Source: Squalus acanthias
Taxonomy: Eukaryota
Reading direction: 5' to 3'
DNA length: 64,000 bases
Assembly: GCA_030390025.1 (NCBI GenBank)
Contig: CM059431.1
Coordinates: forward strand, 144,090,001-144,154,000
Both the position numbers and the translations under genes were made by a program. Every line of letters starts with the position of its first letter. The stretch's first letter is position 1. Under the pieces are notes generated by a model that was not told the origin of the DNA, ran no database searches, and saw only the letters and a program-made list of their open reading frames with translations. Below, piece after piece: positions 1-55,582 of the stretch.

Positions 1-284
1 TTTAAACCTCTCACAACATATAGCTACAAATCGGTCAAATGTGAACGAGACTGTGAACCACACCGACAAATACAGGGCGACACATTGCAGGTATATAATG
101 ATCTTACAAACGACAGTGTAGGACAGAAAGGAAAGTGGAAAGTGATAACGTAAAATGCGATTCACTAATATATTAACGATCATGACCAGTAGATCTGCTG
201 TTGACATGGCCACCATGTACACAGAGATACATTTTGAAAGGCCGCAGTTTCCTCTGGAGAGAATCACGATCGTCAGTCGGTTCG
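1..284 (-). CDS. GPR139/GPR142-like class A GPCR copy 1, coding exon 2 (partial, runs off window edge)
   Basis: Acceptor ...tctcacAG at 286-285; reads (A)NRLTIVILSRGNCGLSKCISVYMVAMSTADLLVMIVN...VCKIIIYLQCVALYLSVWFTVSFTFDRFVAICCERFK with no stop; TM2 ADL and TM3 DRF motifs. Confidence 0.88.
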
Positions 285-1034
285 CTGTGAGAAGGAGGGA
301 GAAGAGGCCAGTAATTGGGTCATTGAGATAAATCTCACAGATTATTCTGGGGAAATGATCAGATGTGGTCCTATTCAGCGTTATGCGGACGGGTTTTTTC
401 ATTAATTTAGGCGATGGTGAAGACATTTTATTTAAAGGAATGAAATCACTGAACATTCAATATCGAGGGACTGAAAATCCGCCGTCCGTCCAGCAAACTT
501 CATTCAAGTATTAAATATAATTCCACAGCAATTAAAGGAAAGATATAATTCAAATAAAACATTGAACTCCGACAAAAAAAACTTTCAAATTATACTCAAA
601 CGCTGCCGAGAGGAGGGGAGCACCTTCCTGAGTGAAAATTATTTCGTAAAATACCTTTCAAAATCCCCTGTTGGGTGGAGATTTCTGCAGTCCGAATCAT
701 TATCTACTTAATGTAGAAAGGGAACAACGGCACATATGAGGTGATTGTTATGGGCACTGAGCAGCACATTCTTTAGTGAGCTATGTGTTGTTGGAGGGGC
801 CGGGGAATCAGCCTCGCCCTCCCTCAGTATAAGGAGGAACATTGAGCGTCCGGTGCCCGCGACCTAGCGACCAGAACAGTGCCTCGGCGGTCGCGCGGAC
901 GACTGGGATTGCCGCTAATATTCAACGACAGATCCCGGTGAATAAATGACTCTGCAATGTGGACATTCTCGGACTCTCTTACATTAACACTGAGATAGTC
1001 AACAGGTATTAGGCAACAGGATACATTGACTTAC

Positions 1035-1104
1035 CGGGAATGCCAAATGCTGCGAGTATATGGTAGTAAATGTCCAGTATCTGTAAAATTATTGGCCGTA
1101 CCAT
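1035..1104 (-). CDS. GPR139-like GPCR copy 1, coding exon 1 (MVRPIILQILDIYYHILAAFGIP-)
   Basis: ATG at 1104, 70 nt, donor CCG|GTAAG at 1034, phase 1; same layout in all four copies. Confidence 0.85.
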
Positions 1105-1183
1105 TGTTTTGAAGATTTGTGTGAATTCTGCGCTGCTTTACGATTCCGAGTAGAGTGTTTCTGAGATCCGTAAATGCTCCCCC

Positions 1184-1250
1184 TTTATAGAACAATCGGT
1201 GGCCCGGTGAGATAATCAGGTTGCACAATAATTGGCGTTAGTTACAGTCA
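1184..1250 (-). promoter_or_regulatory. GPCR copy 1 proximal promoter: conserved 37-bp motif plus TATAAA
   Basis: TGACTGTAACTAACGCCAATTATTGTGCAACCTGATT (1250-1214) then TATAAA (1189-1184), 85 bp before ATG. Confidence 0.6.
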
Positions 1251-1536
1251 CTTAACAAACAAGCGGCGAATTTCAACCTCAGTGCGCCCAGGGCGCCAAT
1301 GGGGAAATTGAACAGCTTAGTCCATGAAACATCGTCCTTTACATTCAATGAACGGAAAGTAATCGCAGAGGAAATGGACTCTGCGCATGTCCAGTAAACC
1401 TTGAAGGATAAAGCAAACGTCCCTCCGGACACTGCGTTGATTTCTTGGAGCCTCATCTTAATTTGGTGAAATCGTCACTCATCCATTGCTTAATTAAATT
1501 TGTTTTGTACTGTGATGATGAATAATTTGAATCGGA

Positions 1537-2725
1537 TCTAACATTAATGGTGGTGACCCTACTCTAACATTACTGGTGGTGACCCTACTCTAACATTACT
1601 GGTGGTGACGCTACTCTAACATTACTGGTGGTGACCCCACTCTAACATTACTGGTGGTGACTCTACTCTAACATTACTGGTGGTGACCCTACTCTAACAT
1701 TACTGGTGGTGAGTCTACTCAAACATTACTGGTGGTGACGCTACTCCAACTATACTGCTGGTGATTCTGCTCTTACATTACTGGTGCTGACCCTACTCTA
1801 ACATTATTGGTGGTGACACTACTCTGACATTATTGGTGGTGACCCTACACTAACATTACTGGTGGTGACCCTACACTAACATTACTGGTGATGATTCTAC
1901 TCTAACTACACTGGTGGCGACCCTACTCTAACATTACTGGTGGTGACCCTACTCTAACATTATTGATGGTGAACCTACACTAACATTATTGGTGGTGATT
2001 CTACTCTACCATTACTGGTAGTGACTCTACTGTATCATTACTGGTGGTGACTCTACTCTGACAACACTGATGGTGACACTACTCTAACCTTACTGGTGGT
2101 AACCCTACTCTAACATTATTGGTGGTGACCCTACTCTAACATAACTGGTGGTGACCCTACTGTAACATTAATGGTGGTGCCCCTACTCTAACATTACTGG
2201 TGGTGACCCTACTCTAACATTACTGGTGGTAACTCTACTCTAACATTACTGGTGTTGGCTCCACGCTAACTTTACTGGTGGTGATTCTACTCTAACCTTA
2301 TTGGTGTTCACTCTACCCTTACATTACTGGTGGTGAACCTGCTCTAACATTACTGGTGTTGCCCCTATTCTAACAAACTGGTCATGACCCTACTCTAACA
2401 TTACTGCTCGTGCCTGGACACTAACATGACTGGGGGTGACACTACTCAAACATTATTGGTGGTGACCCTACTTTTACATGACTGGGGGTGACCCTACTCT
2501 AACATTAATGGCTTTGGTCCTACTGTTACATTACTTCTGGTGACTCTACGACCATATTACTGGTGCACACATAGCTCTAATATTACTGTAGGTGAACCTA
2601 ATCTAACATTATTCGTGGTGATCGGTCTCTAATATTGCTGGTAGTGACTGTTCCCAAAAGTTACTGCTGGTAATACTCTAAGTTAATGGGTGGTAACTCC
2701 TCTCCAAAATTACTGCTGTTGACAT
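1537..2725. repeat. 26-bp minisatellite upstream of GPCR copy 1
   Basis: Unit ACTCTAACATTACTGGTGGTGACCCT, about 45 copies, degenerating distally. Confidence 0.95.
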
Positions 2726-2734
2726 GTTTTTTTT

Positions 2735-5690
2735 ATTTGTTCATGGCATGTTGTTGTCGCTGTCAAGGCCAGCCTTTATTGCCCATCCCTTTTTGCTCTT
2801 GAAAATTTGGTGGTGAGCCGCCTTCTTAAACCACTGCAGTCCATTTGTTGAAGGTCCTCCCACAGTGCTGTTGGGGAGGGATTTCCAGGATTTTGACTGA
2901 ACGACGACGAAGGAACGGTGATATATTTCGAAGTCTGGATGGTGTGTAACTTGGAGGGGAACTTGCAGGTGGCGGTGTTCCCAATAAGCCTGCTGCTCTT
3001 GTTCTTCCAGGCGGCAGAGGTTGCATGTTTGGGAGGTGCTGTCGAAGAAACTTACATCTTGTAGATGGTACATACTGCAGTCACAATGCACCGGTGGTGG
3101 ACGGAGTGAATGGTTAAAGTGATGGATCGGTGCCAATCAAGCGGTCTGCTTTGTCCTGGATGGTGTTTAGCTTCTTGAGTGTTGTTGGAGCCCCACTCAT
3201 CCAGGCAAGTGGCGAGTATTCTCTCACACTCCTGAATTGTGCCTTGTAGATGGGAGAAAGGATTAGGAGAGTCACCAGATGGGATACTCGCCGCAGAATA
3301 CCCGATCTCTGATCTGGTTTTGCAGCCACATTATTTATGTGGCTCATACTGTTAAGATTCTGGTCATTGGTGTCCCCTACGATGTTTGTGGTGGAGGTTT
3401 CGATGATGGTAATGTCGTTGAATGTCAAGGGGAGGTGTTTGCACTCTCTCTTTATTGAGTTTGTCATTTCCTGGCACATGTCTGTCAGCAATGGTTTCAG
3501 CCCAAGCCTGCAAGTTGTCCTGGTCTCGCTGCATGTGGGCTTCATTGTCCCAGGAACTGCGAATAGAACAGAACACTCTGCAATCAGCAGCGAACATCCT
3601 GACTCTTCTGTTCTTATGATTGCCGGACTTCAATGATGAAGCTGCTGAAGATGTTCGGGTCTCGGACACTGCCCTGAGGAAATCTTGAGCGATGCTCTGA
3701 GACTGATATGACTGACCTGCAACAATCTTCCTTTTTGCTCGGTATGACTCCAGCCAGTGAACTCCTTTCCACCTGAACCCCATTTACATCAATTTTACCA
3801 GGGCTGATGGATGTCACACTCGGTCAAATGCTTGTTGATGTCTGGGCAATCACTGTTCCCTCACCTCTGGACTTCTGATCCTTTGTCCATTTTTGGACAA
3901 AGCTGTAATGAGAACTGGAGCCATGTGATCCTGGCTGAACAAAACTGAACATCGGTTAGCAGGTTATTGATCAGCAAGGGATGCTTGATAGAAATGACGA
4001 CGACACCTTCCATCACTTTGTTGATAATTGTGAGTAAGGTGATGAGACGGTAATTGGCCGAATTTGATTTGTCCTGTTTTTTGTGGACAGGACATTCCGG
4101 GGTAATTGTTCACTATGTCGGTAGATGCCATTGTTGTAGTTGCACTGAAACAGCTTGGCTAGAAGAGCAGCTGGATCTGGAGCACAAATTTGCAGCACCA
4201 CAGCCGAGATGGTGTCGGGCCACAGCCTTTGCCGTATCTAGTGCGCTCAGTCGTTTTTTGATGTTACGTGGGTGTGAATCGAATAGACTGAAAATGACAT
4301 TATGAAGGTGGCGACCTCAGGAGGAAGCCGAGATGGATCATCAACTCGGCAATACTGGCTGAAGATGGTTGCGAACGCTTCTGCATTGTTCTTTGCACTC
4401 CCATGCTTGGCTCCGTCGTCATCATTAAGGATGGGGATATTAATTGACCCTCCTCCTCCTATTATTTGTTTAATTATTCACCGCCATTAACGACAGGATG
4501 TGGCAGGACTGCAGAACTTTATCTGATGCGTTAGGTGTGGGATCGCGGAGCTCTGTCTATAGCATGGTGCCTCCGTTGTTAACATGCATGTTGTCCTGTG
4601 TTTCAGCTTCCCCAGGTTGGAAGCTTATTTTTAAGATACGCCTGGTGCTGCTCCTGGCATGCTCTTCTACACTCTTCATTGAACCAGTGTTGGTCCCCTG
4701 GCTTGATGGTAACAGCAGAGTGAGTGATATGCCGCACCATGTGTTTACAGATTCAGGTGGAATACAATGCTGCTGCTGATGGCCCACAGCGCCTCACGGA
4801 GCCCAGCTTTGAGCTGCTAGATCTTTTCTGAATCTATCCCATTTAGCACGGGATTCCAAATCCAGAAGGACTGTGCGCTGGTCACTGCTACCAATGCTGT
4901 CATGGTCAGATGCATCTGCAACAGGTAAATGGTGAGGACGAGGTCAAGTAGTTTTTACCCTCGTGATTGTTCTCTCACCACCTGTCAAAAGCTCAGTCCG
5001 GCAGCCAACGTCCAAGGCTCCTCCATCACTATTTCTGGGTAGGTGCTGTCCCACCAGCAGGACAGACCTCCAATAGGTGCCAGCACAGTGGTATACAGTC
5101 GTGAAGGTGTTGTACTGGGAGTACTCAACATTGACATCGGACCTCATGAATTCTCTTGCCATCAGGTCAAATATGGGAAAGGAATCCTCTTGCTGATTGC
5201 CACCTACCGGGCTCCGTCAGTGATGAATCAGTACTCTTTCATGTTGAACACCACTTGGAAGAAGCACTGAGGGCACAGAGTGTTCTCTGGAAGGCGGACT
5301 TAATTGTCCAAAACCAATACTGTCTCAGTAGCACCACTACTGACCGAGTTGGCCGACTCCAGAAGTACAAAGCTGCCAGACTGAGCTTGGGGCCGGTGGT
5401 GAGAGAAATAACACGAGGGAAAACCTACTTGACCTTGTCCTCAACAATCTACCTGTCTAAAGGCATCTGTTCATGGCAGTATATTTAGGAGAGACCACCG
5501 CACAGTTCTTGTCGAGACGAAGTGCCGTCTATACACTGCGGGCAACCTCCAACGTGTTGTGTGGCACTACCACCTTGCTAAATGATTCAGAACAGATTTA
5601 GCAGCTCAAAACGTAGCCTCTACGAGGCACTGTGGGCCATCAGCAGCAACAAAATTGTATACCACCACAATCTGTAAAGTCATGGTGCAA
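2735..5690 (-). mobile_element. CR1/L2-group LINE remnant (endonuclease + RT fragments, 3' tail at left)
   Basis: Broken ORFs with MFAAD/FADD-like RT motif, EYSPLAWM...LNTIQDKA C-terminal block; A-rich tail near 2735; 4860-5690 looks like an inverted (+) endonuclease segment. Confidence 0.8.
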
Positions 5691-8716: not shown

Positions 8717-10130
8717 CTAATTAAAATCTGATATGGTCCCGACCATTTTTGGGGCGAACCCGGGTTTTCGTGGTAGACTCTTAACCTTTACCTTGGTCCC
8801 CGCTGGAGCGATATATGGAAATACGGTCAATTCCAAATCTGTATCTCTTTCTTCCTGTCTTTCCCTAGTTTGCTGTTTCATTTCTTTTAATTGGTTACTC
8901 TTTTCCAGGACATATCTGCGGAGTTTATCCTTTAGGGGACCCACATCTTCTCCTCCAGTCATTATACCATGGGGGAGCTGCATTGCCCTCCCCGTCGTTC
9001 GCTCATATGGTGATAGGCCCGTGGTTCGATTTGGGGTGGCTCTTAGTTTCATTAATACTGTGGGTAGCACATCCACCCACCGTTGCTGTTGTTCCCCCAA
9101 TGCTTTGGCTACCGCTGTTTTTAAGGTGCGATTCATTCTTTCTACCATGCCAGGACTTTGAGGATGGTATGGGATGTGGAATTTCTGTTTTATTGACCCC
9201 CTTCCTGTATGGGCACTTCCATGATGTAGTTCTAAAAGTATCTGTCTGATGCACGCGGGGGCTATCACCTTTCCATTCTTTCGCCATATTGCCTCTTCAT
9301 CTGGTCTACCCCCTACTCGGTACCATTCCTGTCTTTCGTCTTCTGGGGCGTCTGCATGCAATTTACTGATATCTGTTCCCTCTACCTGTGCACTAGCTAC
9401 GTTCCCTTCAACCATTTCTTGTTCAAGAGCTCGCTGTGCTGCTAGATCAGCAGCCTGGTTCCCTTTTGCTCCTGATTCTGTATCTTCTGGTGCATTTTTA
9501 TTTTTATTACTGCAGCTTGTTCTGGGGCTTTTGTGCCTTCCAAGAGGGCCTCTATTCGCTGCTGGTGTTTTATGTGATCCCCTCCGGTTGTCACAAACCC
9601 CCTTCTCCCCCAAGCTGTCATATAATCGTGTACCACTCCGAATGCATATCTACTATCCATGTAGATGTTTACTGTCTTTCCCCTTGCTAATTCTAGCTCC
9701 TTTGTTAACGCTACTATCTCGGCTACTTGTGCCGACAAGCCTCCGTCTAACCTTCCCGACATTTCTGTTTCCAACTGATCATTAACTACTGCCCATCCTG
9801 GCCGGGGAGATCCCTCTACATATTTCCAGGACTCGTCTACGTATAGTGTCATCTGAGCTTCCTCCAGCGGTTCGTCATGCACGAGGGTTTCGTCTAGTCC
9901 CCTCTGTCTCTGAGCACTGATGGGGGCTTCCCTCACTCAGGATGCCTTCCGCGGGGTTTTCCCCTGTATCTCGAATTACCTTAACTGGCTGGTCTATCGG
10001 CAGCAGGACTGCTTCCCATCGAGCTCGCAGCAAATTGGAAACTGACCGTAGTTTCCCGGTATTCAACATCTCTACCAGTGTATGCCGAGTGTGTAAGACG
10101 ATATCCCCTGTCATCACAGTTGGTTCGTTA
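8717..10130 (-). pseudogene. pol: ERV pol remnant: connection domain, RNase H and deleted integrase
   Basis: YVDES...SAQVAEIVAL...NIYMDSRYAFGVVHD; KGNQAADLAA; HHGSAH; FHIPYHPQSPGMVERMNRTLK; frameshifts and internal deletion. Confidence 0.9.
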
Positions 10131-10139
10131 CTCTAACTC

Positions 10140-10712
10140 TGCATCTCTGTCCTACATTATTCTTAGCGCATATTATACAACGGTGACAATATTTCGCCAC
10201 CTCTCGACCCATCTTTGACCACTACCAGTGTGTGTCACGAGGGGCAACATGTTACTTCTGACGGTATGTGTTACACCATGGTACAGCCCCATCAGTTGTT
10301 GTCTGCAACATTCCGGTGCCACCACCTGGTTTCCTGGGCCCCATCTCCAAATTCCATCTCGTAACTGTGCGCCAGCTTGTTTTTATCTCTCTTTTTTCCT
10401 CTTTACTAGTATTTTCTTGTACCTCCACTATATTCGCTTCCTGTACCCCACTGGCTGTCATGACCATATTTATCTCGTGTTTAAACGCGGCTTCTGGTTT
10501 AAGTTCCTCCGTGGCTAGTTTTGCGGCCAAATCTGCATACCGATTTCCAATGGGAGCCTGATCCTGAGGCTCCTATGAGTCCATGTCTATCTTCGTGTGG
10601 GCCTTTATTTTAATTACCGCGGTTTCTAAAGGTGCCTGTGTCGCCTTAACTAGCCTTTCTATTAGCTTTCCATGTTTTACTACCTTTCAGTGGAGGTCAT
10701 ATAACTCCTTCT
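10140..10712 (-). pseudogene. Second, divergent RNase H C-terminus and integrase N-terminus remnant
   Basis: KHGKLIERLVKATQAPLETAVIKIKAHTK...GNRYADLAAKLA, then GIWRWGPGNQVVAPECCRQQLMGLYHGVTH. Confidence 0.75.
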
Positions 10713-16840: not shown

Positions 16841-17254
16841 TTATCGCCATGCTCCTCAAATTCTGGCAACTTGCTCATACCCGATTTCCTAGGTTCTAAA
16901 TTTTGAAATACCTTTCCCGAACTTCTCCAACTCTCTCTCTCTACTTTATGGCGCGAGTTAATCCCTAAGCCTTTGCCCGATCACAGGGACAGCTGGGTAA
17001 CTGTTCTCTACTAATAGAACCTAAACTAACGAGTTTACCACGTTAGGCAGGGCTCGGTCTGTGCTGTGGAGATGTTGGAAAATGGCAGCTCCGAAAGGGG
17101 TTGCGTTAATGGTAATAGAGCGAGGGTGTGACGCCTCACTTTATTATCCCACTGTCTAGATTATCTACCTTGCTGAAGGAGAATAAACCCTTGATTGCCC
17201 GCCGGAACAATGAGAGGACTGACCACTAACGGGAGCGTGATGGTAAGCATCCAG

Positions 17255-19625: not shown

Positions 19626-19639
19626 TGGAATAGGATCAC

Positions 19640-20345
19640 CACAAGTAACATTCGATTAGGGTCACCACAAATACTGTTAGAATGGAGTCACCATGAACAA
19701 TGTTAGTGTAAGGTCGACACCAGTAATGTTAGAATAGAGTCACCACCAGTAATGTTAGTGTATGGCCAACACCAGTAATGTTAGAGTAGAGTCACAAACA
19801 GTAATGTTAGAGTAGAGTCACCACCAGTAATGTAAGAGTAGAGTCACAACCGGTAATGTTAGAGTAGAGTCACCACCAGTAATGTTAGAGTAGAGTCACC
19901 ACCAGTAATGTTAGAGTAGAGTCACCACCAGTAATGTTAGAGTAGAGTCACCACCAGTAATTTTAGAGCAGAGTCACAACCAGTAATGTTAGAGTAGGGC
20001 CACCACCAATAATGTTAGCATAGGTTCACCACCAGTATTGTTTGAGTAGGGTCAGCATCAGTAATGTTAGTGAAGAGGGTAGGATCACCAACAGTAATGT
20101 TACAGTGAGTCGCCACCAATAATGTTAGAGTAGGTTCAACACCAGTAATGTTAGAGTAGAGTCAACACCAGTAATGTTAGTGTAGGGTCACCAGCAATAA
20201 TGTTTGAGTAGGGTCACCACCAGTAATAGTAGATTAGAATCTCCAAAAATAATATTAGAATAATGTAAGAATAAAGTGACCAAAACTAATTTTAGAATAT
20301 TATTACAACGAGCAAATTTCGAGAGGGGTCATCGACACTCATGTT
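19640..20345. repeat. 26-bp minisatellite, distal part of the gene 2 array
   Basis: Unit AGAGTCACCACCAGTAATGTTAGAGT, reverse complement of the array at 1537. Confidence 0.9.
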
Positions 20346-34572: not shown

Positions 34573-34643
34573 TGACTGTAACTAATTCTAATTAAGAGTT
34601 AACCTGATTGACTCGCTGGAGGATTGATGTGTGGATAAATATA
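34573..34643 (+). promoter_or_regulatory. GPCR copy 3 proximal promoter motif plus TATA-like box
   Basis: TGACTGTAACTAATTCTAATTAAGAGTTAACCTGATT 34573-34609, GATAAATATA 34634. Confidence 0.6.
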
Positions 34644-39244: not shown

Positions 39245-40185
39245 CGGGAACTGGCATAGTGCAGGAACCCGTGTGACTGGGATCTCGCAGAGTGTGGGAA
39301 CCCGTGGGAATGGGAACTGGCAGAGTGTGGGAACCCGTGGGAATGGGAACTGGCAGAGTGTGGGAACCCGTGGGACTGGGAACTGGCAGAGTGCGTGAAC
39401 ACGTGGGACTGGGAACTGGCAGAGTGCGTGAACATGTGGGACTTAGATCTGGCAGAGTGCGGGAACACTTGGGACTGGGATCTGGCAGAGTGAGGGAACC
39501 CGTGAGACTGGGGACTGGCAGAGTGCGGGAACCCGTGGGACTGGGATCTGGCAAAATGTGGGAACCCGTGGGACTGGGATCTGGCAGAGTGTGGTAACCC
39601 GTGGGACTGGGAACTGCCAGAGTGCGTGAACCCGTGGGACTGGGATCTGGCAGAGTGCGGGAAGCCTTCGGACTGCAATCTGGCAGAGTGCGGGAACTCG
39701 TGCGACTGGGAACTGGCAGAGTGCGGGAACTCATGGGAATGGGAATTGGCAGAGTGTGGGATTCCGTGGGACTGGGATCTGGCAGAGTGTGGGAACCCCT
39801 GGGACTGGGATATGCAGAGTGCTTGAACCCGTGGGACTGGGATCTGGCAGAGTGTGGGAACCCATGGGACTGGGATCTGGCAGATTGCGGGAACACGTGG
39901 GACTGGGATCTGACAGAGTGTGACCCGTGGGACTGGGATCTGGCAGAGTGTGGGAACCCGTGGGACTGGGATCTGGCAGAGTGCGGGAACCCGTGGGACT
40001 GGGAACTGGCAGAGTGTGGGAATCCGTGGGACTGGGAACTGGCAGAGTGCGGGAACCCGTGGGACTGGGAACTGGCAGAGTGTGGGATTCCGTGGGACTG
40101 GGATCTGGCAGAGTGTGGGAATACCTGGGACTTGGATCCTGCAGAGTGTTTGAACCCGTGGGACTGGGATCTGGCAGAGTGTGTG
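39245..40185. repeat. 33-bp G-rich minisatellite
   Basis: Unit GGGAACCCGTGGGACTGGGATCTGGCAGAGTGT, about 28 copies. Confidence 0.95.
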
Positions 40186-42515: not shown

Positions 42516-43901
42516 ATGATGTGGAGATGCCGGCGTTGGACTGGGGTGGACAAAAATGAGAAGTCGCACAACACCAGGTTATAGTCCAACAGATTTATTA
42601 AATTTTACAAGCTTTCGGAGCGAATCCCTCCTTCCTCAGGTAGGGTAGCAGTGAGAGAATCTCCCAGAATTCACAATATAGACACAGACAAAATCTATTC
42701 AAATCTTTCCCTACATCAAAGACACACTAAGAGCACAGCCAAGACAATGAGATGTGTCCCAGGGGGTCCAACGTGTCAAAACACCTGCTGGCTGCATATC
42801 CTGTCAATTTGTGTTGGTTCTTGTGTTAGTCTTTTTTAAAAAAAACACCTGGAAAGACCGGCCATGATGTCAAGTCACGTTCTGTATCGTGACATGAACC
42901 CGATATCGCGATTGAGGCCATCCTCATGAGTGCGGAACTTGGCTATCAGTTTCTGCTCTATGATTTTGCGCTGTCGTGTATCCCGAAGGCCGCCTTGGAG
43001 AACGCTTACCCGCAGATCCGAGGCTGAATGCCCCTGGCTGCTGAAGTGTTCCCCGACTGGGAGGCAACCCTCCTGCCTGGCGATTGTTGCGCGGTGTCCG
43101 TTCATACGTTGTCTCAGTTTCTGCATGGTCTCGCCGATATACCATGCTCTGGAGCATCCTTTACTGCAACGTATCAGGTAGACAACGTTGGCCGAGTCAC
43201 ATGAGTATGTACCGTGTACCTGGTGGGTAGTGTCCTCACGTGTGATGATGGTATCTGTGTCCATGATTTGGCATGTCTTGCAGAGGTTGCCGTGGCAAGG
43301 TTGTGTGGTGTCGTGGTTGCTGTTCTCCTGAAAGATGGGTAATCTGCTGCGAACGATGGTACTTTTGAGGTTAGGCGGCTGCTTGAAGGCGAGTAGTGGA
43401 GGCGTGGGGCTGGCCTTAGCAAGGTGTTCGTCGTCATCGATGACATGTTGAAGGCTGCGAAGAACATGGCGTAGTTTTTCCGCTCCGGGGAAGTACTGGA
43501 CGACGTAGGGTACTCTGTTGGTTGTGTCCCGTGTTCATCTTCTGAGGAGGTCTATGCGGTTTTTCGCTGTGGCCCGTCGGAACTGTCGATCGACGAGTCG
43601 AGCGTCATATCCCGTTCTTACGAGGGCGTCTTTCAGTGTCCGTAGGTGTCCATCGCGTTCCTCCTCGTCTGAGCAGATCCTGTGTATTCGCAGGGCTTGT
43701 CCGTAGGGGATGGCTTCTTTTACGTGGTTAGGGTGGAAGCTGGAGAATTGGAGCATCGTGAGGTTGTCCGTGGGCTTGCGGTAGAGTGAAGTGCTGAGGC
43801 GTCCGTCTTTGATGGAGTTTCGTGTGTCCAAGAATGAAACCGATTCTGAGGAGTAGTCCATGGTGAGTTTGATGGTGGGATGGAACCTGTTGATGCTATC
43901 G
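42516..43901 (-). mobile_element. Penelope-like element, Neptune type, 5'-truncated (RT C-terminus + GIY-YIG endonuclease + terminal repeat)
   Basis: One frame 42875-43900 with a single TGA at 43535-43537: VSFLD...LYRKPTD...IPYGQALRIHRICS, linker CHGNLCKTC, NVVYLIRC...YIGET...RMNGHR. Confidence 0.92.
42606..42642 (-). ncRNA. Minimal type I hammerhead ribozyme motif in Penelope terminal repeat
   Basis: TAC CTGAGGA A GGAG-GGATTCG-CTCC GAAA GCTT GTA. Confidence 0.7.
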
Positions 43902-44189
43902 TCTAATTAAAGTAGATTAACGACAAATAGGAACCTGTAAGGGACGGGTGACTATTGAACCTCTGGGAGCTTCCTTGTTAGCTGTTTTATTTTAATGCTT
44001 TGTTTAATAGAATCTCAACAGCGACGAGGGTATCTTAGAAACAAAAACAATGAAAATGATAGCAACACAGGGAACACAATAAAACCATAGACATTTGCTC
44101 TGTGAGTAGGTCGTGTGACCCATTCTATCTGTACCGGGTCCTTTGATACCACAGTCAAAAACTATCCGCACTGACTTCTTCTCTCTCAA

Positions 44190-44830: not shown

Positions 44831-46519
44831 TGAAGCGAGATCAGGGATGAACAATTTGTAACTGATTCAAAGTTGCTGGTATTTTTCAATGATTATTTAA
44901 GACTATGTGTAACCGAATAATAAGACGGTAATGACCAAAGATTCTTTCTGACCGTCCGCAAATGTTCAGCCAACCAGAGGCTACTTAATATCAGTTTTAT
45001 TTCAGCTGAATTTCTAGCAACTTTTTTTTACAGATAAGTTGCATGAAAAGTAATAGTTAATAACTTTATGAATAATCATTCATGTTTACATTCCTTTACT
45101 ATTTTGTTTGCGAGACTGGTTGAGAAAGAATTACAATAATATTACTCAAGATACTTTTATCGACAGCACAAAACAAGAACAGACTCCATCTTTGTGCTGA
45201 GTGAGAGACACCAGTCAGCGCACAATCGAGATTTTAAGTCAGTACCTGGGACAAAAGAGGTGAAAGGTCTCATCGATGAGCCGAATTCCGACTGTGTCCG
45301 CCATTCGAACACTGATCACGTGAAAAGATCCGGCTCCATTTGTCAATGAGGAATGGAGTGCGATAGAGAGACCCGCGCCTGCAAGATTCACACCAAACTT
45401 CCAGGAAATTAACAGTATCAGCGATCGCAGGACCTTTGATAGTTTTCATGATGCGGAGATGCCGGTGTTGGACTGGGGTGGACAAAAATGAGAAGTCGCA
45501 CAACACCAGGTTATAGCCTCAGCAGCCAGGAGAAGGAGAGTGAGGAGCAGCAGCAGCAGCAGCAGCAGAGGCAGAGTGGTGGTCTCTGTGACCAGGAAGA
45601 GGAGAAGGAGACCAGACAGCAGACCACCACCAACAACCAACAACCACAACAACTGAGGTGCCTGGAGAGAGAGGACAGGAGAGGAGAAAGAAAAGAAAAG
45701 AAGGCCAAGGCCATCAACACCAGAGGAGAGGCCTTTCCATCACTGCCTCCTCAATTGGCCTCCATTTTAGGAGAGGGAGAGAGGGGAGAAAACATCACAA
45801 CAAACATCATCTGTTTGGAAGGAGGAAGAAGGAAGGAAAGAACATCTACAGGTGGGTGTCTATTTGGTGCACTCTCCCAGAGACTTTGTTTTGTAGGTGG
45901 GGGGAGGAAAGAAGAAAAGAAGAAGCCCGGAACATCCAAGGGGTGTATGTGTGTGTGTGGCTTCTGTAAAAACTAGGACGCACACACCATATTAAACGTC
46001 CCTTTCCCATTGCCTGGCCTGGGACAGCTGGAGCTGCCTAGGTGAAGTTCCCCAATTTAAGTTCATCTAATTGGGCATCGTTAAGACCTGGTGCAGGACT
46101 GAGCCTGGGCATCTCCAGCTTTCCCAGGTGAAGACATCTTCTCCCCCCACCAGAAGACCACCACCAAAGACTTTTATTTACATCGGAGAGTGCACCCCCT
46201 GCCAACACCCACCCACCCACCATCCTGAGTGGCGACCCTGCCCTTGCTGCTTCCCTCCTTCCCACCCCCTCTCTCTCTCTCTTTGTCTCTTGTCTCTCTC
46301 TGCCTCTCTCTCCAAGAGGCACCTCAATTTACTTTTAATTAAGTACCCATTGAGCAGAGGGAGAAGGCCCCTCTCCTAATTAATTCATATAAAGGGAGAG
46401 GTGTGCCTACAATTTAAGAGCTCCCTCTGCTCAGGGGAAAAAAAAATACAAAACCGAAGCCATTAACACCTTCAGAGCTGTGACTTGGGGTGAGAGTAGC
46501 CCTTAAAGACCCGTCCATT

Positions 46520-48671
46520 ATGGCGAGCACATCTTCGTCGGTGGCGGGGGCAGCGAGGACGCATGCGAGCGTGGCAGCCGCGGCCACGGCCGCAGCCACG
46601 AGTCCTCCTGTTACCCCGTCAACTTTTACCCTCCTTACGAGGAAGAATGGGGTCAAGAGCTACACTCACCCCAATATGACAATAGAGGCGTGCGTGAAGG
46701 CCATGGCTGGGGTTGTCGGCCCTTCAGCCATCGTCGCCGCCTCTAAAATGTACGGCAAGGCTGTGTTCTTCCTGGGGTCGGAGCGGGCGGTGTCCCTGGC
46801 CATCGAGAAGGGGCTCACCGTGGGCGGGACCTTCCTGCCGGTGGACCCCCTTGAGGCCACCGTGCAAAGGATTGTTGTTTCCAACGTCCCGCCCTTTGTT
46901 CCGGGTGAGCTCTCCTCCCCCACCTACGTCAACTGGGGGAGGTGAGGTCGGGGATCACACCCATCCCGCTCGGCTTCCGGGAAGCCAGCCTTCGGCACGT
47001 CTTCTCCTTCCGGCGCCAGCTTTTCGTCCGGCTGGCGCGGGAGGAGGACGTGGACGGCGCGTTCACGGTGCTCCACGGGGGGACCGCCCACCGCGTCTTC
47101 TGGACCTCGGACGGCGTGCGGTGCTACGCCTGTAAGGAGGTGGGGCACGTCCGCAAAAACTGCCCCGCCTCCAAGGCCGCCACGACACCTAGCGCGGCCA
47201 GGGCTGGCGCCGCCGCCCCCCTCCCCCTGATACTGTCCGCGCGTCGAAGACAACGGATGCGCGGTCAACGTCGGGGGCCAACACCATCACGGCCTCCGGC
47301 GGGGGGGAGGGAGAGCGTCCGAGGGGAAGGAAGGCGCTTAGAAAGACTAAACACCTAAGGGCGGATCCCCTCGTGGACAAAACCACCGATTTGCCCGAAC
47401 TCACGCCCGCGTACATCGCGGAGTTGACCGGGACGCGTGAGGCTGGGGGGGTCCTCGTGCCCGGGCCCGTGACCGTGACCGCAACTGCCAAGGCAGCTAA
47501 ATCAAGACCTGCGGCCGGGCTCGGTCCCGAGGGGCCCAAGAAACCCAGTCATCGGAAGGGGGCAGAGAGGGAGGCCCCAGCAGACATGGAGGCCTCCCCC
47601 TCTCCGGGCCCCAATATGTTAAAAAGGAAGCTCCACCCCCAGGAGGAGGACTGCGAGGAGGAAGGTCCCTCCGCAGAAGGGGAGTCGTCGCCCGCCACGG
47701 GTACTGCGCCCCACCCCACCACCGTCATCGTCGCGCGCGAGCGGCAGGGGTCGCCTGTCCCTCGGGAAGGTGAGACAGCCGAGTCTGTCCGACCTGTGCC
47801 TCCCGGGGATGGGGAAGAGACCCTGCCCGTGGGGGGGGGCGCGGAACAACCCGCGGATATTAATAAAAATCCAGAACCGTTGCTCCTCGCCGGGTAGGGC
47901 GTCCTGGGGACTGGGGCGGGCGAGGCCAAAGAGGCTGAAGCCGAGCCCGCCTTTTACAACCCAGATATCTCCCAGGGACTGCTCGACCTGGTGGAGGAGT
48001 ACAACAATCCCCAGCCCGCTGGGTCGGAGGTTGGTGGCGGGGAGACAGAAAGCCCCCTGACTCCGTCTCTGATGTTGGCGCCGGACGTACTGGAGGACTT
48101 TGAAATTATTTTCTCCCCGGTTTCTCCGGTCGCTCCGGCGCCTGAGGCGGGGGGGAGGCCTGAGCCGCCGCCGCCTCCCGGCCCGGCGCCCCTGAAGGAG
48201 CCCAGGGTGGACTCCTCTGCCACCGATCCTGGGGGTGGGATCGTGAAGGAGGCGGGGCCGGCCGGCGCGGCCGAGCCGTTCGCTGCACCCCGTGCGACGG
48301 ACGGGTTGGTCGCCGGTGACGACCTCCCGGAGGAGGACGGGGACTCGGTGTTGGGCACCGAGGACGATTTGGAGTCCATCGGCAGCGAGGCGATGGACGC
48401 CCTCGTGCCCTTCACCGACTCTCCCCTCATCCCCGTAGGGGAACTCCGGGATTTTATGGCCACGAGCCAGGGTCGTCACAAGAAGATCCGGCTGGCCCTC
48501 GACAAGTGGTCGGAGCTGGCGCTGCTCGTCGTGTCCGTCCGCGCCGCCATTAAAATCATGGGCGTGGACAAGGACATTGGCCGGCTCGAGCTGCGTCGGC
48601 TCAAGAGTTTCCACACTGGGCTGCTGAGGGAGTGGCGGTCGTCAGTGACCGCGCTCCCTCCCCTCCGTTAG
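46520..48671 (+). pseudogene. Tx1 ORF1 (gag-like, CCHC zinc knuckle), frameshifted
   Basis: LTRKNGVK...IVAASKMYGKAVFFL...IVVSNVPPF; CYACKEVGHVRKNC; long Pro/Glu-rich region; several breaks. Confidence 0.85.
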
Positions 48672-48696
48672 GTAGAGGTTGCACTATGCTTCTGAG

Positions 48697-51600
48697 ATGA
48701 AGATAACCATAGCCAGCCTCAACATCAACGGCAGCAGGGAGGCGCGCCGTAGATTCAATAACTTCTCGGTCCTACAGGACGGGAAATATGCGGTGTGCTT
48801 CCTGCAAGAAACCCACACCGTTCCGGGAGACGAGGCCACGTGGCTCCTGGAGTGGCAAGGAGGGGTCAGCATGAGTCACCTCTCCAACAATTCCTGCGGG
48901 GTGGCTGTCTTGCTGGCCCCGCATTTTCAGCCGGAGATCTTGAGGGTCAAGGAGCACGTGCCGGGCCGCTTGCTCCAGGTCACTGTTCGCCTGGGAGGCA
49001 TGCCGCTCCATTTAGTGAACGTGTACGCCCCCCGGACCGGTGCGCAGCAAGTGCGCTTCTTCGGAGAAGTGTCCGCTCTTCTGGGCTCCCTCAACGTGGG
49101 CGAGTGCGTCATCCTCAGGGGGGATTTCAATTGTACCCTCGAGGCGCGGGACCGGTCGGGTCCCCCGCGAAGCCCGGCGGCGATGGAGAAGTTGCGGGAC
49201 CTGGTCGGGTCCTTCGACTTGGTGGACGTCTGGCGAAATCTCCATCCCGACTCCAGCGCCTTCACGAGCGTGAGGTCTGGAGGAGGAAGGTCCAGAATCG
49301 ACCGCCTTTACATTTCCCGGGCATACGTCTCCTGCGTTCCGGCGGCTTCCATGCGGCCGGTGCCGTGCACGGACCACCACCTGGTGTGGGCGGAGCTCGC
49401 TCCGCTGCGCGCGCGGGGGGGTGTCCACGTACTGGCATTTTAACAACCTGCTGCTGGAGGACGCGCCATTCCGGGATTCGTTTCGCCGGTTCTGGGCCGA
49501 CTGGAGAAGGAAGCGGGGAGGCTTCCCCTCCTTTAGGCTATGGTGGGACGTGGGAAAGGCTCACGTCCGCGTCTTCTGTCAGGAGTACGCGAAAGGGGTC
49601 GACCAAGAGGCGGGAGGCCCGGGTCGGGCGATTGGAGAAAGAAGTGCTCGACCTGGAGTCCCGTCTCGGTCAAGTCGTCGAGGACCCGACCCTGCGGAAG
49701 GTGTACGAAGAGAAGAAGGGCGCGCTGAAGGAACTGCAGCTGGTCGGGTCCCGAGGCGCGTACGTGAGGTCGCGGATCCAGTTCCTGCGGGACCTGGACC
49801 GCGGTTCCCCCTTCTTCTACTCGCTGGAAAAAAGACGGGGGGTCCGTAAGCAGCTCTTGGGGCTGCTGGCCGACGACGGATCTCTGGTCTCGGATCCGGA
49901 GGGCATCAGCGCGGAGGCCCGGGCCTATTACGGGGCTCTGTTCTCTTCGGATCCGTCCAGCGAGGATGCGCGCAGAGTTTTGTGGGAGGACCTGCCGAAG
50001 GTCGGCCCGGAGGACGCCGAGAATTTAGAAGCTCCGCTAAGCTTGGCGGAGCTGACCGGCGCCCTGCGCCAGCTCTCGAGGGGCAAGTCCCCGGGGCTGG
50101 ACGGGCTAACCGTGGAGTTCCACAGGGCGTTCTGGGACGTCTTGGGGGAAGACTACGCGCGGGTCCTGGGGGAAAGTCTGGCGACCGGGGAGATGCCCCT
50201 CTCTTGGCGCGGGGCGGTCATCGTCCTGCTGCCCAAGAAGGGCGATCTCCGCCTACTTAAGAACTGGCGCCCGGTCTCCCTCCTCAGCACGGACTACAAA
50301 ATTTTCGCCAGGGCTATGTCTGCTCGCCTTGGCACCGTGCTGGCCCACATGATCCACGCCGACCAGTCCTACACGGTCCCGGGCCGGACAATCCACGACA
50401 ACATCCATCTGGACCGGGACCTGGTCCACCATTCCCAGAGGGCTGGTCTGTCGGTCGCCTTCCTTTCCCTAGATCAGGAGAAGGCGTTCGACAGGGTGGA
50501 TCACGAGTATCTTTTCGGGACTCTGCGCGCATTCAGGTTTGGGACGCATTTCGTCGCCCGGATCCGACTTCTGTACGCTGCCGCGGAGTGTCTAATTAAA
50601 GTTAACGGGTCTTTGACGGCGCCCCTTCGCTTCGGGAGGGGGGTGCGTCAGGGATGCCCCATGTCCGGTCAGTTATACGCCGTTTGCGTGGAGCCTTTCC
50701 TGCGCCTCTTGCGGAAGAGGTTGACGGGACTGGCTCTGCAAGGGCCGGGCGTGGAGGTGGTCCTCTCGGCTTACGCCGATGACATGCTCCTCGCGGTCAC
50801 GGATCCCGTCGACTTGCGGAGGATGCGAGAATGCCAACAGATTTAATCGGACACATCCTCCGCCAAGATCAACTGGGAGAAATGTTCTGGACTCCTGGTG
50901 GGCCCATGGCAGGTGGACTCCCTGCCAGAGGAGAACGGGCCTTTCGCCTGGAGCACCACGCACCTCCTCTACCTGGGAGTCTACCTCAGCCCGGCCGAGG
51001 ACGCCTGGCCGGCGAACTGGCAAGAGCTGGAGACCAAGGTCACCGCTCGCCTAGGGCGCTGGACAGGACTGCTCCGAGTGTTGTCCTACAGGGGTCGAGC
51101 GCTGGTCATAAACCAGCTGGTGGCCGCCATGTTGTGGTACCGGTTGGTCACTTTGATCCCTCCCCCTGCGTTTGTCGCCAAGATGCAGAAGAAGCTCGTC
51201 GACTTCTTCTGGGACAAAAGAAAGCACTGGGTCTCTGCCACGGTTTTGAGTCTCCCGCTTAGGGAGTGCGGTCAGGCGCTGGTGTGCCTTCGCACCCAGG
51301 CGGCGACTTTCCGTCTTCAGACGCTGCAGAGATACCTGTACGTGGAGAATCCTCCTAGGTGGCGTGCGCTGGCGACGTATTTCTTCCGCCAGCTGCACGG
51401 CCTCAATTACGACACGCAGCTCCTGTTTGTGAGAGTGGGTGGCACGCGTGCCAGCCTGCGGGAGCTGCCTGTCTTCTACCAGGAACTGCTATGGGTTTGG
51501 AACAGCGTCGCCTCCGGGCGCAGTTCTCCCCCGTCAGGAGCGGTGGCCGTCCTTCGGGAGCCGCTGTTCAGGAATCCGCACCTCCACGACCGTGGGTTCG

Positions 51601-52598
51601 GCTGGCTGGCGGATGGCAGGGCTGTGCCTGGTAAGGTGACCAGAGTCGGGGACCTGCTCAATGGCGGAGTAGCGGGCGGGATGGCGCCGGAGGAGTTGGC
51701 GAGGCGCATGTCCTGGGTGAACGTCCGGCTCGCGGTCAAAGCCATCGAGTCGCTAAAAGTGGCACTGGGCCCCGTCTCCACTAGGTGTTTCGAGGAGGCT
51801 CCAGCACGTGGGACGATCCCGTCCGAACTGACCCCCGTTCGGACGGAATTCCTTATCGGCGCCCGGCCCCGAATCCTCCCTCGGGAGCCGCCGCCTCACC
51901 ACTTGAGCCTTCTCGGAGAAATGCCCTCCGTGCCCTTTCAATCCGCACGGAGGCGTTTCCTGTACGGGCTGCTGCTGCACACTCTCTACTTTGCCATCTT
52001 CGTCTGCCGTCCGGACACGCCTTGGCGTACCATCCTGCCGTCCGGCGGAGGCGGAGATCCCCATTGGAAGGCTGTCTACGCGGGAGTCTTCCCTTGTTCT
52101 ATTGGGGACTTGGCCTGGAGGGTGTTGCACGGAGCAGTCCCGTGCAATGGGATTTTAAATAGGTTTACGGACTCCCAGGCTGCTTGCCATTTCTGCGGCC
52201 TGGAGGAGTCCGTCTTTCACATTTATATTGAATGTGAGAGGTTGCAGACCCTCTTTCATTATTTGAAGGGGCTGCTCCTCAATTTCTGGTTGCACTTCAG
52301 CCCCACGCTCCTGATCTACGGTCACCCGGTGCGGAGGGGAGTGGGTAGGTCGGAGGACCTCCTCGTAGGACTGCTCCTGGGCCTGGCCAAGAAAGCCATT
52401 AATTGGTCCAGGCAGCGGGCGGTAGAGGGGGTCGTTCGGCCCGATTGCCTGCCTCTCTTCCGCGGCCATGTTCGCGCCCGGGTCGCCCTGGAGATGGAGC
52501 ATGCGGTGTCCGCCGGCACGCTTGAGTTTTTCCGCGACCGGTGGGCGCCGTGGGGATTGGAGTGCATCTTCACCCCGGACTTCCAAATTTTAATTTGA
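48697..52598 (+). pseudogene. Tx1 ORF2 (APE endonuclease, reverse transcriptase, C-terminal zinc motif), disrupted
   Basis: SLNING, FLQETH, GDFNC, SRIDR, TDH; KSPGLDG, WRPVSLL, DQEKAFDRV, GVRQGCPMS, YADD; CHFC..H...C; frameshifts near 49420 and 49595, TAA at 50844. Confidence 0.92.
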
Positions 52599-52702
52599 TT
52601 TATTAAGTTTCATTTAAAGTTTTAATTGATTTACAGTAAATTTGGGTTCTGTCCAACCAAAAAGAGGAACACCAGGTTATAGTCCAACAGTTTTATTTGA
52701 AA

Positions 52703-52740
52703 TCACAAGCTTTCGGAGCGGCTGCTCCTTCGTCAGGTGA
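52703..52740 (-). ncRNA. Minimal type I hammerhead ribozyme motif
   Basis: TCAC CTGACGA A GGAGC-AGCC-GCTCC GAAA GCTT GTGA. Confidence 0.75.
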
Positions 52741-54167
52741 AGGAGGAGCAGCCGCTCCGAAAGCATGTGATTTCAAATAAAACTGTTGGACTATAACCTG
52801 GTGTTGTTCGACTTCTCACTTTTGATAGTTTCGGCACCGAATAAAACATTATTGATGATTTGAAAGTGGCGCGCCCGATCCCAGTACTTGCAGTGTAAGG
52901 TGGATTCCTCTGTTGCCTACATGCCCACTGCTGAATCACATCATTGTTATCTTTGATCCCTGAACATGAAATGTGCTGAAATTTCCGGAATAGGTAATGT
53001 TAACTTAGTGAAAGAAGCGAGAAAAACTAAAGTAAAGCAGACATCAAACGCATGCTATAAAATCGAATCAATGTTCACACATGAACTCTCCCACTTCTCA
53101 CATTTTCAGAAAGAAGGACGTTCTACGGTGGAAAAGGAGTTGAAATTGAGCTTCAGTTACGAGGAAGCTTTTGTTTGACTTGATTACTTTTAATCTCATT
53201 TTCTAACGAATCTCAGAATGAGTGTCCAGGGATATTTCACCACAGTCTTCAGCTCTTCTCTGAATTTCCTCTGGGTGGCTGCATAAATACACGGGTTTTG
53301 AAAGCCACTCAAAAACTTCAGCATGGCTCAGGTTTCTGTGGCGATATATCCAGGGTCTGTGCGGTCGCCTCGGTAATAAGTGGTGTTTCCCAGTCTGGTA
53401 GTTAACAAACTCACGGCATTTGTCAGCCACAACAGTATAAAACTGCCCGATATAGTGAAGAGTAAAATGATAGATTTCCTTCGGTTCTACATCTCCGGAT
53501 CACACTGATTCTCAGTCCTGTGACCCCGGAGTTCCCTGCGCGCTCTGCTGGCCACTAATATACGACGGACTGTCAAAGAATTAAACAAGACAATTAAACT
53601 GAAAGGAAGCCAAACAACCCAGGCGCTGTGAAACCAGAGGTAGGCAACACCTGCAGGTGAGGAAAAAAAAGCCACACTTGGACGGCAGCCCCACTGCACC
53701 TTGTTAATTATTTGCTGATGTTCAAATCCAAACAATACGGGGATGTCTTTAAATAAGGTCAGGACCGAGAAGGTTGTTATAATCGCGGCCGCAGTTCTCT
53801 TGGTGCAATATTTTGTCTTAAACTTCTGGCAGCAGAGAACTACAAATCGGTCAAATGTAAATGAGACGGTGAACCAAACAGACAAGTCGAGGGTGACACC
53901 AGTCATGTATAAAATGAATTTACACACCAGCGTGTGAGACAGCAATGAAAGTGGAAAGTGATAACTGTAAATATGATATACTACTACGTTGATGACCATG
54001 ACCAGTAGATCTGCTGTTGCCATGGACACCATGTAGACAGAGATACACTTGGAAAGGCCGCAGTTTCCTCGGGAGAGAATCATAATTGTCATCAAGTTCG
54101 CTGTAAGAAAGAGAAAGGAAATAAATAATTTTACAGTGTCTGCTTGAAATATCAATGGAGATTTATT

Positions 54168-55073
54168 GGCCCTGAATTTCCGATCGGAGGCTTCCTGCGT
54201 GCACACAAAAATCTAGGCTGACACTCCAGTGCAGGACTGAGGGAGCTCCGCACTGTCAGATGTGCCGTCTTTCAGGTGATACGTTAAACCGAGGCACCGT
54301 CTGCTCTCTCAGGTGTACGTAAACGATCACATGATAATATTTCGAAGAAGAGCAGGGGAGTTACCCCCGGTGTCCTGGCCAATATTTATCCCTCAATCAA
54401 CATAACAAACAGATTATCTGGTCATTATTACATTGCTGTTTGTGGGACCTTGCTGTGCGGAAATTGGCTGCTGTGTTTCCCACATTACAACAGTGACTTC
54501 ACTCCAAAAATACTGGCTGCAAAGCACTTTGAGAGGTCCGGTGGCCGTTAAATGCGCTATATAAATGCACGTCTTTCTTTCACACTTTTGACAGATCTCT
54601 AAGCACAGATCTGTCAAAAGTATGAATGGGGATCGCATTTAAAAACACAGTTAAACATTAAATATCTATTTTTAATCACGTATTTAAAATTAGTTAAAAT
54701 TACATTAAATTAAATATTTTAAACGTGGCTTAAAATAAACTTACCTTTTTCGAAAGTATTTTTAAATTAAATATGAGTGAAAAAAAGTATATTTTATTTT
54801 TTTTAAACACTTATGCTGGTAAAAGCAGATCTCACGCCTGCTTTTACCAGTGATAATATTTTGAAAGGTTTTCAGTGGGCGGGAGTTGTGCAGAAAGCGC
54901 AACTACCTGCCCGCGGAGGCACTTTTCCCGTCAGTCGGCTGATCTGTCCAGAGAATTCTTGACAGGTCGCAAGTGCCGGGTTTTAGCGCATGCGCTTCGC
55001 ATGCCTGAACCCAGCAATTGCGCGGCCGCTACACACCTCGTACGCACCTGTGGGGGTCAGAAAATTCCGGCCC
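54168..55073. mobile_element. MITE in the intron of GPCR copy 4
   Basis: TIR GGCCCTGAATTTCC / GAAAATTCCGGCCC; absent from the paralogous intron of copy 3. Confidence 0.75.
54204..54581 (+). mobile_element. 5'-truncated DeuSINE nested in the MITE
   Basis: GCTGACACTCCAGTGCAG...GATACGTTAAACCGAGGC...ATAAATGCACGTCTTTCTTT. Confidence 0.8.
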
Positions 55074-55582
55074 TTTCATTATGGTTATCAACATGGAGCA
55101 GTCTGAGAAAATGATTAGTATTATGACCATTACCTGGGAAACCCACCCACACATTGTAATGAGCTGCTGCAGCGCTCACTCTGCACGGGAGGGCAAGACG
55201 CTCCGGAAATCCGCTCAAATCCTCGTGTTGGAGTTTCAAAGACCATTGTAACTTCAGTAAGGTTATCGGATTAAGGGGACTGCGGAAAGTGCAGACACGT
55301 GGTTCATGAGTTGGTTCCAGTCACTACCAGCTATGTAATGCAGACATCTGGGAGAGACGTCACCTTATCCAGCATGCTGTATGTACATGGATACAGTTAA
55401 CCCCGATTAACAACAAGCAGATTACAATGGCTCACCGGGAACACCGACGGCTGCGAGAAACGGGTAGTAAATCTCTTTGATCAGCAGAATAGCTGGTTGC
55501 CACATTCTCTGTGAGAATAGATGAATTCTGTCGGAGGTAAAGAACTCTGACTGGTGCAAGGCTGAGGCAATGGACGTAAACC

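Follow-up and report, generated by a model that had tools for sequence, protein, structure and literature searches.

The window analyzed here, a 64-kb stretch of Squalus acanthias DNA, lies, judging from the comparisons below, within a cluster of genes that belong to a receptor repertoire of cartilaginous fishes, one that keeps duplicating and dying. The family has multiplied into many subfamilies in these fishes, and it is almost certainly an expanded family with a diversified ligand pocket; its copies vary most at the would-be ligand site, like receptors for smell, taste and pathogen sensing. External ligands are probable for the family. The fuller reading, i.e., a pocket-diversified chondrichthyan repertoire for external ligands that would most likely operate in a chemosensory epithelium, is given an even chance.

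Four receptor genes, three of them broken

Four two-exon class A GPCR genes (copies A–D) were located in the window by tblastn, blastn and a six-frame profile search, all in agreement, and a fifth copy was sought there by the same searches and not found. Assembly duplicates were rejected as the source of the four copies, which differ at dS 0.22–0.67. The original prediction described four diverged paralogs, three of them disabled at different stages of decay, with one phase-1 intron each, and the gene models bear this out. In all four copies a first exon of 70 nt (23 codons plus one base) is followed by a phase-1 intron between GxP and AN, presumably the intron position of human GPR139, with GT donors and CAG acceptors; the introns measure 750, 839, 417 and 1335 nt in A, B, C and D, respectively.

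Copy A, on the reverse strand, has exon 1 at 1035–1104, an intron at 285–1034 and exon 2, covering the end of TM1 to ICL2, at 1–284, where it is cut by the window edge; the frame is open over the 118 visible codons. Directly after N1.50 it carries an arginine (position 1.51) that occurs in none of 198 aligned relatives, and for this reason copy A may also be damaged. The remaining copies carry distinct lesions. Copy B, on the forward strand (exon 1, 22799–22868; intron, 22869–23707; exon 2, 23708–24596), is a pseudogene with deletions of 2, 1, 12 and 1 nt, all but the 12-nt deletion causing frameshifts, and a stop at W6.48 (24363–24365). Copy C, also forward (exon 1, 34721–34790; intron, 34791–35207; exon 2, 35208–36127), has a single premature stop at codon 88 (35399–35401), and copy D, on the reverse strand (exon 1, 55436–55505; intron, 54101–55435; exon 2, 53196–54100), has premature stops at codons 228 (53489–53487) and 281 (53330–53328).

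Assignment to class A is based on seven helices, Pfam 7tm_1 matches above the cut-off (E 3e-16 for copy C and 2e-20 for copy D) and the N1.50, D2.50, DRx, P5.50, W6.48 and N7.49–Y7.53 motifs. The predicted structure model has a pLDDT of 67, and the fold search, which returned many peptide receptors with near-equal scores and GPR139 at rank 9, supports the fold only. N1.50 is residue 25, and the first helix is predicted from residue 5 in an intact relative. The short N-terminus singled out earlier is present, but it is not particular to the expansion because conserved sister clades have it too.

Each copy is preceded by a conserved promoter block on its own strand, at 1214–1259 for A (TATA-like site at 1189), 22648–22705 for B (TATAAA at 22718), 34564–34621 for C (TATA-like site near 34634) and 55605–55662 for D (TATA-like site near 55592). 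A minisatellite also lies upstream of each of the four copies, with a 26-bp unit for A (1537–2648) and B (21426–22433, with a further piece at 19636–20259), a related 48-bp unit for C (32041–34288) and a decayed 48/49-bp array for D (55950–57193, with a further piece at 58007–58355). Retrotransposon pieces are abundant throughout the window.

The family in cartilaginous fishes and its nearest relatives

Among 3197 candidates, 2024 pass E 0.001. The best 120 of these 2024 are all elasmobranch, come from 12 species at 61–79% identity and include many full-length sequences; at least 33 are from Pristiophorus, at least 29 from Heterodontus, at least 25 from Heptranchias and at least 11 from S. canicula, and 115 of them carry the automatic name 'probable/putative GPR139'. 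The 20 deeper representatives that were looked up are likewise all chondrichthyan, rays and the chimaera Callorhinchus among them. Single-species clades of 17, 11, 10 and 10 sequences are seen in the tree of relatives, on which species changes number 34 versus at least 65 in 500 shuffles. Contigs of equal size hold all 11 S. canicula matches and 17 of the 29 Heterodontus matches, which were counted towards clustering. These blooms and the turnover among relatives uphold the proposal of a lineage-expanded birth-and-death repertoire, and the low copy number named in advance as evidence against it was not what relatives in other sharks revealed. Clustered paralogues, lineage-specific blooms and pseudogenes, as expected of a chemosensory repertoire, are found together.

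The nearest relative found of the chondrichthyan family is a separate orphan gene, S2, which is conserved in amphibians and sturgeon and joins the expansion with support of 100/99. A further sister clade, S1, ranges over sharks, bony fishes, coelacanth, amphibians, turtles and squamates, with one match in each of three sharks. Both clades seem to have about one gene per species, their pockets are conserved, and both resemble the expansion in their short N-terminus; S2 also shares the disulfide. The S2 pocket is GPR139-like (F3.33, W6.48, N7.39 and a basic residue at 6.51). A link between S2 and electroreception was rejected because S2 is present in many frogs, animals that are not known to have ampullary organs. 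As orphan receptors, S1 and S2 lend themselves to work in frog and fish, and they are possibly identical with GPR210A/B or with the unnamed gar/coelacanth set, the GPR139-related sets described in PMC6504862, in the available part of which sharks are unmentioned.

Among solved structures, GPR139 is the best profile match (68.6 bits versus 48.2 for the next), also with a wider profile (141 versus 116 bits). With one and the same profile, scores above that of GPR139 are reached by S2 (up to 202 bits), S1 (up to 197), amphioxus (126–141) and mollusc-type receptors (105–111). The nearest solved relative and the nearest invertebrate clusters fall in the GPR139/FMRFamide/sex-peptide receptor group, broadly defined, which places the family in this wide group as well. 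The family is similar to GPR139 in the TM1 pattern, W6.48, an acid at 7.36 and, often, H5x43. The Trp/Phe pocket of GPR139 is formed by F109, H187, W241 and N271, according to the available part of PMC5430874. When these residues are mapped by alignment onto the best 120 relatives, the histidine is present in 59%, the tryptophan in 99% and the asparagine in 3% (N7x38 is lost), and F3x33 is not kept (A27/T23/V16/S10/C9 percent at 3.33). Furthermore, human GPR139 has Asp at 3.25 and lacks the ECL2 cysteine, whereas in the family C3.25 occurs in every sequence (100%) and 98% carry the ECL2 cysteine, so that it keeps a TM3–ECL2 disulfide that is absent from GPR139; P6.50 is replaced by Thr in the window's subfamily, unlike in GPR139. 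Profile scores and residues set GPR139 apart, and by these measures the window genes are not copies of mammalian GPR139. Our data do not lend support to the suggestion of descent from GPR139/GPR142 with L-Trp/L-Phe chemistry, given the loss of F3x33 and N7x38 and the nearer amphibian/sturgeon orphan, in a comparison that covers GPR139.

Variation at the putative ligand pocket

Pocket positions, which we take to be the generic class A list, were placed by motif anchors on the alignment and not measured on the structure model. The ratio of pocket to other-helix entropy is 1.94 (p 1.5e-4) in the best 120 relatives and 2.12 (p 7e-9) in 78 broad representatives, but it falls to 0.83 (p 0.31) for the 120 orthologues of S1 and to 0.15 for the 21 of S2, p values here and below being optimistic because related sequences are not independent. 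The excess persists when the comparison is with non-pocket positions of the outer half (p 0.003). Among single species, it is found in Pristiophorus (p 3e-4), Heptranchias (p 0.011) and S. canicula (p 0.018), and is below significance in Heterodontus (p 0.081). Distinct seven-site pocket signatures number 92 in 120 expansion sequences, 21 in 120 S1 and 1 in 21 S2 sequences. Expansion copies retain the activation core and the intracellular loops, while pocket-facing positions vary; a variable pocket combined with a conserved signalling face, as in chemosensory repertoires, is seen, except for significance within Heterodontus. The relatives in other sharks did not display the uniform pocket that the original prediction had named as contrary evidence. 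Variability of this kind marks a repertoire directed at many ligands.

Overall dN/dS is 0.23–0.54 in five of the six window pairs, with intervals below 1 in those five, and 0.92 (interval 0.48–2.04) in the A–B pair; the outer half has the higher dN in all six. These values bear on the possibility of largely neutral amplification, in which minisatellites and retrotransposons would drive unequal crossing-over and most copies would be redundant and decaying. The three broken copies in the window and its repeats are compatible with such a process; however, neutral decay would not focus change on the pocket and at the same time spare the intracellular loops and the other helix positions, and the five intervals below 1 and the many full-length relatives in 12 species also argue against it, which makes it the least probable of the explanations considered.

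Under the preferred reading, a chemosensory repertoire, every intact copy would recognise an external ligand of its own in the TM2/3/5/6/7 pocket, and the copies would have one G protein for signalling in common. The ligands would most likely be peptides, amino acids or their derivatives, since the S2 pocket is GPR139-like and the receptors of the wider group are neuronal ones for peptides and amino acids (PMC12208981, available part). The likeliest site would be a chemosensory epithelium, i.e., the olfactory rosette, the taste buds or the solitary chemosensory cells of skin, gill and gut.

A spliced paralogue contig joined at the predicted exon 1/exon 2 junction was found in one probable RNA run of unrecorded tissue. 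Family contigs are present in all three probable RNA runs (tissue unrecorded), some short ones at a depth of 40–180, together with intron-like pieces; a contig at least 95% alike to copy C was sought in these runs and not found, and no RNA run with copy C was among those listed, a result that has no bearing on its expression. Contigs in all three runs would likewise be expected if expression were broad or in blood cells, or if DNA of a multicopy family had been carried over.

Mammalian formyl-peptide receptors and MRGPRs detect microbial, parasite or damage peptides, and the family could, with a chance that we rate as rather low, comprise comparable sensors of innate immunity or of barriers, carried by leukocytes, mast-like cells or nociceptors. 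Immune receptor families share the sequence signature of clusters, turnover and a variable pocket, which counts against the chemosensory reading, and the contigs in all three runs agree with immune use. In addition, cartilaginous fishes are reported to be without MAS1 and its relatives (PMC8455134, available part), so that a MAS1-type role would be vacant. On the other hand, the neuronal character of the wider group speaks against immune sensors, as does the window itself, among whose open frames no immune genes were noticed. Chemosensory use would be the likeliest, about twice as likely as immune sensing, its main rival.

Kinship with sex-peptide/MIP and FMRFamide receptors would also suit receptors for diversified peptides of the animal's own (reproductive, seminal or neuroendocrine), an explanation that we consider improbable. 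The relatives are peptide receptors, the family retains the disulfide together with a long ECL2, and in catshark testis or rectal gland shows enrichment of some V2Rs (PMC11979771, available part), so that expanded shark receptors are not necessarily olfactory. However, receptors for endogenous ligands are usually stable, like S1 and S2, whereas the expansion has blooms and frequent loss.

Comparison with known receptor families

No description of the shark expansion was found in the literature searched, which left most subscription papers outside its coverage, so an earlier description is possible; the available parts of PMC8455134, PMC7677710, PMC10116579, PMC12208981 and 10.1101/2024.11.25.625254 contain no link between GPR139 and sharks. 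Cartilaginous fishes are described as GPCR-poor in the portion available of PMC8455134, and that of PMC10116579 leaves a restricted odour space open. The latter holds V2Rs to be dominant in catshark olfactory neurons, which are all of the Go/TRPC2 microvillous type; this, the death of three of the four window copies and the dN/dS of 0.92 in the A–B pair stand against a chemosensory reading. Catshark chemosensory counts comprise only OR, TAAR, V1R/ORA, V2R, T1R and T2R, 65 genes in all (PMC6368271, available part), and surveys querying with these six known families would miss the chondrichthyan family. One subfamily has at least 33 clusters in one shark among the best 120 of 2024 relatives, a number similar to that of the V2Rs in catshark. 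We tentatively suggest, while regarding it as somewhat doubtful, that the family is a further vertebrate chemosensory one, restricted to sharks, rays and chimaeras, at least as large as the V2R set, derived from the GPR139/FMRFamide-receptor group independently of srw and hidden by one automatic name. If true, this would help to account for keen smell and taste in animals with about eight ORs.

The six known families yielded no sequence match (PF00001 was the sole Pfam family reached with E up to 0.01), and none of their members is among the listed relatives or solved-structure matches. The likeness to them lies in birth-and-death clusters, a variable pocket and, for ORs, the short N-terminus that ORs have. 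Nematode srw receptors are likewise expanded and clustered, with fast gain and loss and one conserved disulfide. Atlas neighbours of the window proteins carry PF10324 in 17–87% of members and Pfam Srw/Srx in part of members; the window proteins differ from srw in matching only 7tm_1 in Pfam, without PF10324. Described as kin of the myosuppressin/FMRFamide receptors, as rapid in gain and loss and as proposed sensors of environmental peptides (PMC2576165, available part), srw is an independent expansion in another phylum, and its function is itself a proposal. The chondrichthyan family would be a parallel to srw, whose origin lies in related neuropeptide receptors.

Receptor genes, repeats and probable transcripts

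Sequence and profile searches of the window recover exactly four related two-exon receptor genes, in keeping with the original prediction: copy A on the minus strand (exon 1 1104–1035; exon 2 from 284, running past the window edge), copies B (22799–22868 and 23708–24596) and C (34721–34790 and 35208–36127) on the plus strand, and copy D on the minus strand (55505–55436 and 54100–53196). In all four the first exon measures 70 nt and is followed by a phase-1 intron at GxP|AN with canonical splice sites. Three copies are indeed disabled to different degrees: a single premature stop interrupts C and two interrupt D; B has a stop together with three deletions that shift the frame and a further deletion of 12 nt. 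Copy A is open across its 118 visible codons and has an Arg directly after N1.50, seen there in 0 of 198 aligned relatives. dS among the copies is 0.22–0.67, and dN/dS values of 0.23–0.54 in five pairs (0.92 for A–B, over 88 codons) indicate constraint before the copies broke.

The copies fall into two subtypes, A/B and C/D, with common flanks within each; introns do not align between the subtypes. Common to both is a conserved block of 31–58 nt, ~100–155 nt before the start codon (best E 6e-9), which contains a TAATT core, presumably a homeodomain-type site, and is followed by a TATA-like site. Upstream of every gene, beginning ~370–450 nt away, lies a minisatellite of 1–2 kb (1537–2648, 21426–22433, 32041–34288 and 55950–57193); these are related and share place and orientation, and the likeness of their 26-bp and 48-bp units, in the same orientation, was reached in 0 of 2000 shuffles. 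The arrays might promote unequal crossing-over or play a regulatory part. The 33-bp and 38-bp tandem arrays (39246–40183; 17238–18487) are unrelated to the receptor units, and the long open frames of repeated peptide at 39246–40183 are probably due to chance.

Between C and D sits a GC- and CpG-rich LINE (46484–52595, plus strand), which we take to be of Tx1/L1 type; its ORF1 and endonuclease/reverse-transcriptase frames have few breaks, and the insertion looks young. At 60606–64000 (plus) lies a CR1-like LINE whose ORF1 piece is esterase-like and whose ORF2 frames are long, with further CR1-like fragments at about 2700–3800, 20340–21250, 27300–28200 and 30830–31940. A reverse-transcriptase end with a GIY-YIG-like frame (42878–43906, minus) presumably resembles Penelope elements, and broken RNase H and integrase-like frames (8720–10572, minus) belong to an LTR element or endogenous retrovirus.

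Three probable RNA runs under the same species label, tissue unrecorded, were compared with copy C at 80% likeness. All three contain paralogue contigs (26, 17 and 18), some of them repeat-derived at the right end, and none is ≥95% like copy C. In one contig of 171 letters, exon 1 runs directly into exon 2 where the splice was predicted; this lends support to the gene model and to transcription of a family member, although the contig could also come from a retrocopy. Short contigs from a more distant subfamily reach depths of 40–180. Because intron-like pieces also matched copy C, DNA carry-over may contribute.

A chondrichthyan expansion and its relatives

Copies C and D match only 7tm_1 in Pfam, and the structure that AlphaFold predicts for an intact relative (pLDDT 67) shows seven helices, its fold matching peptide-type class A receptors. 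A search with D gave 2024 matches among 3197 candidates; the best 120 of these are all elasmobranch (12 species, identity 61–79%), and 115 of the 120 are named 'probable' or 'putative GPR139'. The same word-based search gave 145 and 25 matches for S1 and S2, two conserved orphan sister clades. When representatives at 50% identity were searched with a profile, 133 matched with E values no higher than 1e-30, many being fragments, and 20/20 in-group representatives picked across the tree are chondrichthyan (sharks, skates, rays, Callorhinchus). The tree of the best 120 with C and D holds single-species clades of 17, 11, 10 and 10 and 34 species changes, versus at least 65 in 500 shuffles. The expansion is real, and the lineage-expanded repertoire with turnover proposed earlier is borne out; among relatives in other sharks, copies are not few. 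Copy A has rare pocket features (Tyr at 3.37) in common with three Pristiophorus proteins, therefore some subtypes were kept across species.

The proposed GPR139 descent and Trp/Phe chemistry are not supported as worded, given the profile scores, cysteines and pocket residues. It is the best profile match among solved structures, at 68.6 bits, and S2, S1, amphioxus and mollusc-type receptors all score above it. GPR139 lacks the cysteines at 3.25 and in extracellular loop 2, whereas the expansion has both; of the four GPR139 pocket residues tested in PMC5430874, the expansion has W6x48 and often H5x43, but F3x33 and N7x38 are not kept.

S1 and S2 were defined from two queries among ten more distant matches. 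S1 is represented roughly once in each species; it covers sharks, sturgeon, teleosts, coelacanth, amphibians, turtles and squamates, and in the 120 matches listed no named row is a mammal or bird. Two S1 predictions are labelled TMEM183A isoforms, which hints at a conserved gene neighbourhood. S2 turned up in 20 amphibian clusters and one sturgeon. In a maximum-likelihood tree of 57 hand-picked rows, the 34 chondrichthyan rows group with S2 in a single clade (support 100/99); taken by themselves the chondrichthyan rows are weakly supported (86/43). Since the chimaera row nests inside them, with weak support, an origin before the chimaera–shark split is likely but not firm. The S2 pocket is almost invariant (identity 97%) and keeps F3.33, W6.48, N7.39 and a basic 6.51, which suggests that the ancestral pocket may have been of GPR139 type. 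At 2.50, S2 has Asn in place of Asp. Orphan sets related to GPR139, to which S1 or S2 possibly correspond, are named in fish, gar and coelacanth in PMC6504862.

Pocket variability and candidate roles

Entropy was scored at 24 generic class A pocket positions, placed by motif anchors, against other helix positions. The pocket/other-helix ratio is 1.94 for the 120 close relatives and 2.12 for 78 broader representatives, versus 0.83 for 120 S1 and 0.15 for 21 S2 sequences. A lack of pocket diversification, which would have spoken against the original prediction, is not what these relatives show. Identity outside the pocket is 0.68 in the close relatives versus 0.67 in S1, and inside it 0.50 versus 0.73. 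The intracellular loops vary less in the expansion (0.70) than in S1 (1.16). The effect persists when the comparison is limited to outer helix halves (p 0.003) and within 3/4 species tested (Heterodontus p 0.081), p values that are optimistic because the sequences are related; how the expansion differs from S1 and S2 carries more weight. This is a clustered receptor family with turnover, a variable pocket and a conserved core; its amplification as a neutral process is improbable.

Different copies would bind different ligands and have their G protein in common. The ligands may be peptides, amino acids or derivatives and would originate outside the body; endogenous peptides as ligands are unlikely, if somewhat less so than neutral amplification. 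Chemosensory cells are our first guess for the site, at even odds, because the nematode srw chemoreceptors originated among related neuropeptide receptors and show the same dynamics (PMC2576165). Against the nose, V2Rs are reported to dominate catshark olfactory neurons (PMC10116579). Immune or barrier sensing is a doubtful yet more plausible alternative than endogenous ligands.

Automatic annotations already list the family proteins, under a name taken from another receptor. No description of the expansion was found in the accessible portions of the literature, shark genome and chemoreceptor papers included, and subscription papers or the PMC11979771 supplement could mention it or carry expression data. 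The expansion is apparently undescribed. Cartilaginous fishes are described as having a paucity of GPCRs (PMC8455134) and the catshark as having 65 chemosensory genes (PMC6368271). Expanded receptor repertoires are already known; the lineage from which this one arose lies outside the known vertebrate chemosensory families.
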